Under the pieces are notes generated by a model. The model did not search any database. It worked only from the letters and a program-made list of their open reading frames with translations, and was not told the DNA's origin. From a virus (Duplodnaviria; Heunggongvirae; Uroviricota; Caudoviricetes), in IMG/VR virus record IMGVR_UViG_2541047097_000025: a stretch of 5,553 bases of DNA; one strand, written 5' to 3'. The position numbers and the translations under genes were made by a program. This document shows positions 3,873-4,091 of the stretch, piece by piece (the first letter of the stretch is position 1; the number at the start of each line of letters is the position of its first letter).

Positions 3873-4091
3873 TCAGTTTTCCTTATATGGGTTAATTTTA
3901 TTGTGCAGTGTGTTGAACGACGCCCATACCACGTCGTTATACAACTCAATAACTAGCTCAATTATTTTCCCGATTGCCCAGACAAAAATTAGCGGGGATA
4001 TCGGTGTCATCAACACGATAAACAGAATGAGAAACAAAAATTCTGTCGCTCTACTTTTTCGCGGATATTCTTTTCTGAATAATGTAGGCAC
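3873..4091 (-). CDS. Small single-pass membrane protein (72 aa), AT-rich gene
   Basis: Basic N-terminus (RKEYPRKSR) followed by one hydrophobic segment (FLFLILFIVLMTPISPLIFVWAIG). GTG start at 4089-4091 preceded by an SD (AAAGGAGAG) and the upstream stop (pattern TGA-T-GTG). The gene is visibly AT-rich relative to its neighbours. Confidence 0.52.
   Translation of the reverse strand: MPTLFRKEYPRKSRATEFLFLILFIVLMTPISPLIFVWAIGKIIELVIELYNDVVWASFNTLHNKINPYKEN

Follow-up and report, generated by a model that had tools for sequence, protein, structure and literature searches.

L0067, an AT-rich DUF4014 gene in the left arm of the Stx2 prophage 933W/Sp5, and the origin of its base composition

Results

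Gene organization of the window

The stretch of DNA analyzed in this study (the window) is 5,553 nucleotides long. It consists of wrbA and the left arm of the Stx2 prophage 933W/VT2-Sakai (Sp5). In a whole-window megablast against phage records, a VT2-Sakai prophage record was 99.9% identical over 98% of the window, including the wrbA junction, and phage 933W was 99.9% identical from position 548 on. At the DNA level, the genomes of VT2-Sakai, 933W, and E. coli O157 matched with 99.9-100% identity. The features of the window are listed in Table 1.

The gene under study is L0067. In the Sakai chromosome annotation, the co-oriented genes are arranged in the order N, ssb, cIII, kil, gam, bet, exo, orf60a/63/61, ea22, ECs1166 (L0067), xis, and int. 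Thus, ECs1166 is located at the distal end of the co-oriented gene string from N to int. Its annotation dates from the publication of the 933W and VT2-Sakai genomes, and it belongs to a catalogued DUF family.

Table 1. Genes, protein segments, and junctions in the window (coordinates are window positions)
Feature	Position	Strand	Description and basis
wrbA (3' portion)	1-579	minus	Annotated records
attL core	~548-554		Annotated records
int	576-1910	minus	Annotated records
xis	1939-2238	minus	Annotated records
L0063	2309-2620	minus	Annotated records
L0064 (ASCH domain)	2680-3045	minus	Annotated records
L0065 (DUF551/EaA-like)	2957-3580	minus	Annotated records
Mosaic block, ~1.76 kb	3205-4964	minus	Replaces ~205 bp inside the ea22-type gene relative to phi24B (blastn and blastp)
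L0066 (ECs1165), 95 aa, PHROG 2821	3584-3871	minus	Downstream neighbor of L0067, translationally coupled; ATG 3871-3869
Downstream junction, AAGGAAAACTGA-A-ATG	3869-3884	minus	Last codons of L0067 (K-E-N-stop), which form the ribosome-binding site of L0066
L0067 = H0077 (VT2-Sakai) = ECs1166, DUF4014 CDS, 72 aa	3873-4091	minus	GTG 4091-4089, TGA 3875-3873; ORF list, annotations, Pfam, PHROG, dN/dS
L0067 residues 42-72	3876-3968	minus	Amphipathic helix (42-66) and C-terminal tail, predicted periplasmic; hydrophobic moment 1.4-1.5
L0067 residues 18-41	3969-4040	minus	Hydrophobic transmembrane segment FLFLILFIVLMTPISPLIFVWAIG; hydropathy, AlphaFold2
L0067 residues 1-17	4041-4091	minus	Basic N-terminal tail MPTLFRKEYPRKSRATE, net +3, predicted cytoplasmic; charge count, positive-inside rule
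Upstream junction, AAAGGAGAGTGA	4093-4104	minus	Last codons of L0068 (K-G-E-stop); contains AAGGAG for L0067
L0068, 74 aa from ATG at 4317, PHROG 926	4093-4317	minus	Upstream neighbor of L0067; ECs1167 is a shorter call
116-aa ORF (orf116)	4310-4660	minus	Unannotated in 933W; window layout
L0069 (Ead/Ea22)	4650-5423	minus	Annotated records

L0067 is a protein-coding gene of the DUF4014 family

The original prediction proposed a 72-aa protein that starts with GTG, and this open reading frame was confirmed on the minus strand. A Shine-Dalgarno sequence, AAGGAG, is present at 4103-4098, 6 nt upstream of the GTG codon. In 91 related loci, the start codon is found at the same aligned position, as ATG in 48 loci and as GTG in 43. 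Since AAGGAG is suitably placed and ATG and GTG interchange at the same codon, the GTG start is credible. The 54-aa versions of the protein in databases are start-site miscalls at an in-frame TTG (Leu19) and do not represent a distinct isoform.

Forty distinct alleles were compared. Of the six frames, that of L0067 had the lowest dN/dS value (0.26), and an internal stop codon was found in none of the alleles. L0067 is a real protein-coding gene under purifying selection. An antisense open reading frame of 113 aa (3865-4206, plus strand) was also considered and was rejected: stop codons interrupt it in 8 of the 40 alleles, and its dN/dS value of 0.40 is that expected for a frame opposite a constrained gene.

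In the Pfam search, residues 2-72 of the protein matched positions 2-72 of the 72-position DUF4014 profile (PF13198) with 88.5 bits against a cut-off of 23.2 bits (E 3.8e-25), and nothing besides DUF4014 was found. The match to PHROG 1832 covered all 72 residues (E 1.5e-45, 154 bits). Identical E. coli proteins carry the name "DUF4014 family protein" in RefSeq. The NCBIfam search gave no match, and the sole match in the PDB sequence-profile search (E 1.2) was noise. Foldseek did not find a relative of the L0067 model in the PDB; a single kinked helix is uninformative for a fold search. In the collection of papers searched, neither a relevant paper nor an experiment on the DUF4014 family, L0067, or ECs1166 was found, and transcriptome data for ECs1166 were not found either. 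L0067 is not treated in the exo-xis papers on phi24B and 933W, and the DUF4014 homologue is not discussed in the epsilon34 genome paper.

The L0067 protein is predicted to span the membrane once

A basic N-terminus and one transmembrane helix had been predicted for the protein, and both features were borne out. Residues 1-17 contain five K/R and two E residues. The resulting net charge of +3 contrasts with that of the C-terminal tail, which is -1. In the N-terminal tail, the motif Y9-P10-R11-x-S13-R14-x-x-E17 is conserved, with invariant columns in two alignments.

The single hydrophobic stretch extends from F18 to G41. Its mean hydropathy is 2.45, its hydrophobic moment is 0.02, and the Kyte-Doolittle score over 19 residues peaks at 2.68 (residues 19-37). 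A conserved kink at P30 (and S32-P33) and an invariant G41 are present in this segment. In the AlphaFold2 model (mean pLDDT 79), a helix of residues 14-28 is followed by a break at T29-P30-I31 and a second helix of residues 32-66.

The best-conserved motif of DUF4014 lies in residues 42-72 and comprises E45, E49, Y51, F59, and L-H-N-K-(I/L)-N-P-Y-(K/R)-E. Across members at 47-100% identity, Y9, P10, S13, R14, E17, G41, E45, Y51, F59, H63, N64, K65, N67, P68, and E71 are invariant. A divergent member (P0127) retains PISP, E..E.Y, and HNKINPY without YPRxSR. At K70-E71, the C-terminal conservation could reflect a constraint from the ribosome-binding site of L0066 and not protein function.

We regarded a protein as bitopic when it possesses a single hydrophobic segment that is 19 residues or longer and has a mean hydropathy above 1.6, together with a positive charge bias on the N-terminal side. 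All three properties are found in L0067. By the positive-inside rule, L0067 is predicted to be a bitopic inner-membrane protein with the N-terminus in the cytoplasm and the C-terminus outside (N-in/C-out).

The low GC content of L0067 is explained by its amino acid content

The region 3880-4090 had been described as conspicuously AT-rich, and the computed composition agrees with this. The GC content of L0067 (3873-4091) is 0.384, compared with 0.475 for the whole window, and is the lowest in the window. When the GC content was computed in sliding windows of 219 nt, the minimum of the whole window started at 3865. The 219-nt windows of the phage part have a GC content of 0.468 (sd 0.029), and only 0.5% of them are as low as L0067.

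The values at the three codon positions were analyzed separately. GC1 and GC2 of L0067 are 0.384 and 0.301, respectively, while GC3 is 0.466-0.472, against a range of 0.42-0.62 for GC3 in the neighbors. For the expected values, the amino acid sequence of L0067 was re-coded 20,000 times, with synonymous codons drawn at the frequencies of the remaining phage genes of the window. GC3 did not differ from the re-coded expectation of 0.468±0.057 (z 0.07), and the total GC of 0.384 was close to the expectation of 0.395±0.021 (z -0.5). Among the 48 annotated Sp5 genes, L0067 ranks 22nd in GC3.

The protein contains 40% F/Y/M/I/N/K residues and 17% G/A/R/P residues. In the 48 Sp5 genes, the GC content at codon positions 1 and 2 tracks the amino acid content (r 0.97). 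L0067 has the lowest GC12 of these genes, with an observed value of 0.342 and a predicted value of 0.362; the residual z is -1.85 in this crude two-class fit. Equally or more AT-rich genes exist in Sp5, namely kil (GC 0.368) and the ssb-like gene (0.382). Furthermore, the GC content of homologous DUF4014 genes remains at 38-40%, while that of their flanks ranges from 47% to 53%.

The GC deficit is confined to codon positions 1 and 2 and is present because the protein is hydrophobic and rich in lysine and asparagine. Thus, the low GC content of L0067 follows from its amino acid content and not from a foreign mutational background. The compositional contrast had been taken as evidence of separate horizontal acquisition. 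This proposal was not supported by the codon-usage check, in which GC3 and synonymous codon usage matched those of the neighbors. The composition of L0067 carries no signal of a separate origin.

L0067 is embedded between its neighbors

In a consensus scan, neither promoter-like nor terminator-like sites were found within or next to 3873-4091. The nearest terminator-like hairpins on the minus strand are located at 2678-2627 and 2268-2249, more than 1 kb downstream of L0067.

Upstream junction: The stop codon of L0068 and the GTG codon of L0067 are separated by a one-base gap (4092). The 12-mer AAAGGAGAGTGA at this junction occurs twice in the window, where 0.04 occurrences are expected, and the two copies lie at two successive gene boundaries. 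The second copy (4310-4321) precedes the start of L0068 itself. The KGE-stop junction upstream of the DUF4014 gene is also found after several unrelated upstream genes.

Downstream junction: The gap between the stop codon of L0067 and the ATG codon of L0066 is again one base. Across the 91 loci, AAGGAAAACTGA(T/A)ATG is the commonest downstream junction, and close variants of it are present in most of the others.

The arrangement of the two junctions indicates that L0067 is translationally coupled to both neighbors. In the leftward early operon (pL, N-antiterminated), the gene occupies a distant downstream position, and the consensus scan gave it no transcription signals of its own. From its place in the pL operon, this lack of transcription signals, and the coupling, early lytic expression would be expected. 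By the lambda paradigm and the gene order, L0067 should be a delayed-early gene under N antitermination. Its product would appear early in the lytic cycle, once the phage has infected the cell or been induced, but would be absent from the repressed lysogen.

DUF4014 genes occur in many contexts in enterobacterial phages

The neighbors of the DUF4014 gene were compared in the 91 loci. At least eight unrelated upstream neighbors and at least nine unrelated downstream neighbors were found, in more than 20 combinations, and no constant phage-encoded partner of the gene was observed. When a 1.4-kb query was used, many E. coli matches covered L0067 alone (query 561-790), and other E. coli matches covered L0068 alone (query 800-1022). 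In the related Stx phage phi24B, the DUF4014 gene is absent.

Presence or absence of the gene among related prophages had been named as a point to check. The polymorphism does exist, as the absence from phi24B, the single-gene matches, and the varied neighbors show, but the neighboring small genes behave alike. These results support the view that L0067 is an independently exchangeable single-gene module that is not distinctive among the small genes of the region.

Relative to phi24B, L0067 belongs to a mosaic block (Table 1) that contains the 3' part of L0069, orf116, L0068, L0067, L0066, and the 5' part of L0065. On one side of the block, positions 4965-5425 of the window are 96.7% identical to phi24B 3277-3737. 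On the other side, positions 2944-3204 are 70% identical to phi24B 2817-3071. Phage phi24B has a single Ea22 protein of 301 aa, which aligns with L0069 over residues 1-157 (95%) and with the C-terminus of L0065 over residues 222-301 (51%). A previous report (PMC8614690) was the source of the idea that ea22 is split, and our comparison with phi24B agrees with it.

Epsilon15 and D6 show the same order of an Ead/Ea22-like gene, the DUF4014 gene, and a DUF551 gene; g341c shares only the DUF551/EaA gene that follows DUF4014. L0067 is one of many single-gene cassettes of the ea/exo-xis region that temperate phages of enterobacteria exchange at short, conserved sequences on the gene boundaries.

A DUF4014 gene is carried by 823 of the 5,426 complete E. 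coli genomes (15%), with up to four copies per genome. Members are also found in Stx phages and other 933W-like podoviruses, in epsilon15-like and P22-like podoviruses of Salmonella, in the nin region of the lambdoid phage HK225, and in the P1-like phage D6. When 1.84 billion cluster representatives were searched with the profile, only 26 matches at E ≤0.001 were obtained, mostly fragments or fusions, and a scan of species-representative genomes yielded only two loci, in E. coli and Shigella. As judged from these searches, DUF4014 appears to be a tiny family that occurs almost only in enterobacterial phages and prophages.

Database names and the comparison with epsilon15 gp28

Several homologues, namely those of g341c, MG40, HK225, and some E. 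coli entries, carry the name "O-polysaccharide (or sugar) acetyltransferase inhibitor". The note in the g341c record cites "acetyltransferase inhibitor protein epsilon15p46". In the current epsilon15 record, gp46 is a "hypothetical protein", and gp28 is described as "serotype conversion: transacetylase repressor". These gp28 and gp46 assignments were taken from GenBank records and secondary citations. According to a review, the proposed inhibitors have never been investigated.

L0067 and gp28 were compared directly. The local alignment covered 29 residues, with a segment-shuffle P value of 0.013-0.04. The DUF4014 profile gave an E value of 0.022 for gp28 among 1,034 small ORFs, and the hhalign probability was 55.5%. 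The gp28 family comprises only four near-identical clusters and is too small to sharpen the homology test.

Discussion

An ordinary accessory gene

In this study, we analyzed L0067 of the Stx2 prophage 933W/Sp5. The identity of the gene and the cause of its composition are, in our judgment, highly probable, and none of the observations speaks against them. The best explanation as a whole is very probably that L0067 is an ordinary annotated accessory gene of this prophage and that its AT-richness comes from its protein content. The compositional oddity has a trivial cause and matters little as it stands. As a general point, when a short gene for a membrane protein is AT-rich, the third codon positions should be judged before horizontal transfer is invoked.

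DUF4014 is a conserved membrane protein of the main Stx2 phages and of 15% of complete E. coli genomes. As for its function, we tentatively propose that the protein binds and modulates a host membrane protein. We regard this mechanism as quite possible but short of probable. The protein would act alone and would bind a broadly conserved inner-membrane or envelope protein of the host via its juxtamembrane tails; this host protein would be inhibited or modulated during early lytic development. Two observations suggest this mechanism: the conservation is concentrated in polar motifs that flank the membrane helix, and the gene serves phages that have unrelated virions and infect hosts of different O-serotypes (E. 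coli O157, Salmonella, and rough E. coli K-12). The lack of a constant phage-encoded partner also fits a protein that acts alone.

An extension of this idea is that the DUF4014 proteins are widespread single-pass inhibitors that dock on a conserved polytopic envelope enzyme or transporter of Enterobacteriaceae, with epsilon15 gp28 as a possible remote relative. We consider this extension quite improbable. If it were true, an unrecognized factor that remodels the cell surface or membrane, and that is switched on at prophage induction, would be present in Stx phages and in about 15% of E. coli genomes.

Alternative explanations

Membrane toxin: L0067 might be a Kil-like or Hok-like toxin, the helix of which inserts in the inner membrane, depolarizes it or blocks division, and thereby aids the takeover of the host. 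The small size, the single strongly hydrophobic helix, and the position in the early operon fit this explanation. A hydrophobic helix of 24 residues is compatible with non-specific membrane toxicity, and the conserved acidic stripe of helix 42-59 (E45, E49, D53) could line an oligomeric pore. However, Sp5 already possesses kil (ECs1177), about 4 kb upstream of ECs1166 in the operon, and L0067 has no sequence similarity to Kil; blastp of L0067 against Sp5 Kil gave nothing meaningful. Moreover, the conservation is strongest in the polar tails and not in the helix, which points to specific binding. The gene is also kept intact under purifying selection in 15% of E. coli genomes, in up to four copies. 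A toxin is thus unlikely.

Superinfection exclusion: T4 Imm, HK97 gp15, and P22 SieA block the DNA entry of related phages. L0067 might be a membrane protein of this kind, and its inner-membrane location, the predicted periplasmic tail, and the occurrence of the gene in many temperate phages are in line with such a role. Exclusion is normally exerted in the lysogen, however, and no promoter for expression in the lysogen was found. Similarity to known exclusion families was absent in Pfam, PHROG naming, and PADLOC; in PADLOC-DB, no defense-component family was matched at E ≤0.1 by L0067 or its three nearest small neighbors. In addition, a single entry route is an unlikely target because the carriers (podo-, sipho-, and P1-like myoviruses) have very different tails and entry routes. 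We regard exclusion as decidedly unlikely.

Separately acquired gene: The original prediction compared L0067 with moron genes. Under this explanation, the gene was imported recently from a low-GC donor as an autonomous unit that benefits the lysogen. The lowest GC content in the window and the presence or absence among related phages in many different contexts are what such a history would leave. However, the amino acid content fully predicts the GC content, GC3 and synonymous usage are indistinguishable from those of the neighbors, and the neighbors with normal GC shuffle likewise. In the exhaustive search, nearly all members came from phages and prophages of enterobacteria, so that no low-GC donor clade is visible. 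Furthermore, L0067 is judged not to be a moron because the consensus scan found no flanking promoter or terminator, the gaps to the neighbors are one base, and the end of the upstream gene supplies the ribosome-binding site of L0067, just as the end of L0067 supplies that of L0066; the shared ribosome-binding site and stop junctions correspond to coupling within an operon. Thus, moron status was not upheld, and a separately acquired foreign gene is very improbable.

O-antigen O-acetyltransferase inhibitor: Equally little can be said for an inhibitor like the small transmembrane conversion proteins of epsilon15. The name carried by the homologues and a marginal N-terminal resemblance (PRKS..E.LFLI..W) to epsilon15 gp28 are the points in its favor. 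However, the name goes back to an earlier annotation of epsilon15 gp46 that has since been superseded, and the similarity to gp28, which extends over 29-31 residues and consists mostly of hydrophobic helix, is marginal and short of significance. The family is found in O157, the O-unit of which is not known to be O-acetylated, and in HK225 and D6 (on C600), the hosts of which are rough K-12 strains; a serotype-specific enzyme is therefore an unlikely target for the whole family.

Virion protein: That the product is a virion-borne protein "released from the phage upon host infection" is hardly credible, since only the label of PHROG 1832, copied into RefSeq phage records, speaks for it, while no source of the label was found, the gene encodes an integral membrane helix, and its location is early and non-structural in every phage examined (exo-xis/ea, nin, or beside Ead/Ea22 genes). 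Both this label and "acetyltransferase inhibitor" are without traceable support and should not be relied on.

Comparison with known systems

Like L0067, the lambdoid morons lambda bor and lom are non-essential and variably present among relatives. Morons carry a promoter and a terminator of their own, and their composition at synonymous sites is often different; neither feature was found for L0067. They are also expressed in the prophage state, which is not expected of L0067. Lambda Kil (PF06301) and other host-takeover peptides of early operons resemble L0067 in being small, non-essential products of the pL operon. A Kil-type protein is one whose induced expression blocks FtsZ ring formation and kills the host. 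Kil differs from L0067 in that it is not an integral membrane protein, and the two share no sequence similarity.

Epsilon15 gp28 and gp22 (the alpha-polymerase inhibitor) are, like L0067, small phage membrane proteins (60-66 aa), and each is thought to bind a polytopic envelope enzyme of the host. In contrast to L0067, they have two hydrophobic segments, are without the HNKxNPY tail, and adjoin tailspike or integrase genes. L0067 resembles gp28 only marginally (hhalign 55%) and gp22 not at all.

The Gnarl proteins are small phage accessory proteins that alter the O-antigen, and one of them, Gnarl3, binds the cytoplasmic enzyme GalU (PMC12373910). The DUF4014 signature peptide was not found in the supplementary data of that report. 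The Gnarl proteins are phage accessory proteins of 40-90 aa, as DUF4014 proteins are, and act as stand-alone effectors on the cell envelope, as is proposed here for L0067.

The closest counterparts of L0067 are its relatives in DUF4014/PHROG 1832, namely epsilon15 gp46, epsilon34 gp27, ES18 gp39, g341c gp23, and HK225_057. They match L0067 over the full length of 72 aa and share the basic N-terminal tail, the PISP-kinked helix, and the C-terminal HNK(I/L)NPY. They also sit among Ead/Ea22 and DUF551/EaA accessory genes. The members from Salmonella phages are only 47-52% identical to L0067; otherwise, there is no material difference.

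Gene-sized exchange around the DUF4014 gene

933W was compared with phi24B, a related Stx phage without the DUF4014 gene (L0067). The comparison (phi24B locus L092, 2817-3737) delimited in 933W a block of about 1.76 kb, at approximately 3205-4964 of the window, within an ea22-type gene. On one side, Ea22 residues 1-157 are retained in L0069 with 95% identity between the two phages; on the other, the C-terminus of DUF551 is retained in L0065 with 51% identity. In both epsilon15 and the P1-like phage D6, an Ead/Ea22-like gene is again followed by DUF4014 and then by a DUF551 gene, and in phage g341c a DUF551/EaA gene follows DUF4014.

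Two successive gene boundaries in the block share the same conserved 12-mer, AAAGGAGAGTGA; the window holds two copies of it, where chance would give 0.04. Read as codons, the 12-mer gives K-G-E-stop, and the Shine-Dalgarno sequence of the following gene lies inside it. In other phages (related loci L001-L090), AAAGGAGAGTGA lies directly 5′ of DUF4014, and the unrelated preceding genes all terminate with ...KGE-stop. Since homology breakpoints in E. coli genomes fall at junctions of this type, AAAGGAGAGTGA looks, from these sequence comparisons, like a crossover site for the exchange of single-gene cassettes.

Features of the leftward operon
Feature	Position	Strand	Remark
Junction 12-mer AAAGGAGAGTGA	4093-4104 and 4310-4321	minus	two successive gene boundaries; variant near 4648-4665
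116-aa ORF	4310-4660	minus	ATG at 4660; occupies the L0069-L0068 gap
Terminator-like hairpins with T-runs, two in tandem	2627-2678	minus	between L0064 and L0063
Terminator-like hairpin with T-run	2249-2268	minus	between L0063 and xis

The gap between L0069 and L0068 is without annotation in the original 933W and VT2-Sakai records. The 116-aa ORF found there aligns from end to end with PHROG 12350 (E 4e-87), and its last 62 aa also align with PHROG 1380. Only a 62-aa version (ECs_1168) is annotated in the Sakai RefSeq record. The 3′ end of this ORF is the same ...KGE-stop junction.

Residues 145-243 of L0069 (Ead/Ea22-like, 4650-5423) matched the PADLOC model "DpdH" (E 1.4e-36), a model labeled as part of a gene cluster related to defence. 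This C-terminal part is the portion that diverges from the phi24B Ea22. The DpdH model may have been built from a prophage gene, or the two may have a domain in common.

Fusions, a doubtful host and naming of DUF4014 proteins

In several cases, DUF4014 is joined in frame to its neighbours (D6 orf103 and proteins P0102, P0122 and P0125). In D6 orf103 (151 aa; L007 3001-3456), the frame continues past the usual stop into the next ORF, following a small change at the junction. In P0122 (271 aa) and P0125 (142 aa), an Ea22-like N-terminus is fused to a complete or partial DUF4014.

A DUF4014 gene whose protein is 90% identical to that of E. coli was also detected in PP818812.1 (L093 2501-2719), "Actinobacillus phage vB_Apl-pPE4", deposited with Actinobacillus pleuropneumoniae as the host. 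Its surroundings are typically lambdoid: a replication protein, an Ead/Ea22-like gene, small ORFs and then hok/gef. The deposited host looks questionable; alternatively, the phage may have an enterobacterial origin.

The name "acetyltransferase inhibitor", formerly given to epsilon15 gp46 (L004/L008), persists on g341c, MG40, HK225 and E. coli entries. In the current epsilon15 record, the conversion role is assigned to gp28 (L008 14345-14527) and gp46 is hypothetical. The name on DUF4014 homologues is annotation drift.

Hairpins downstream of the DUF4014 gene

The terminator-like hairpins lie within the leftward operon, downstream of the DUF4014 gene. Their possible roles are those of N-sensitive terminators, or of processing sites comparable to the tI/sib region of lambda.
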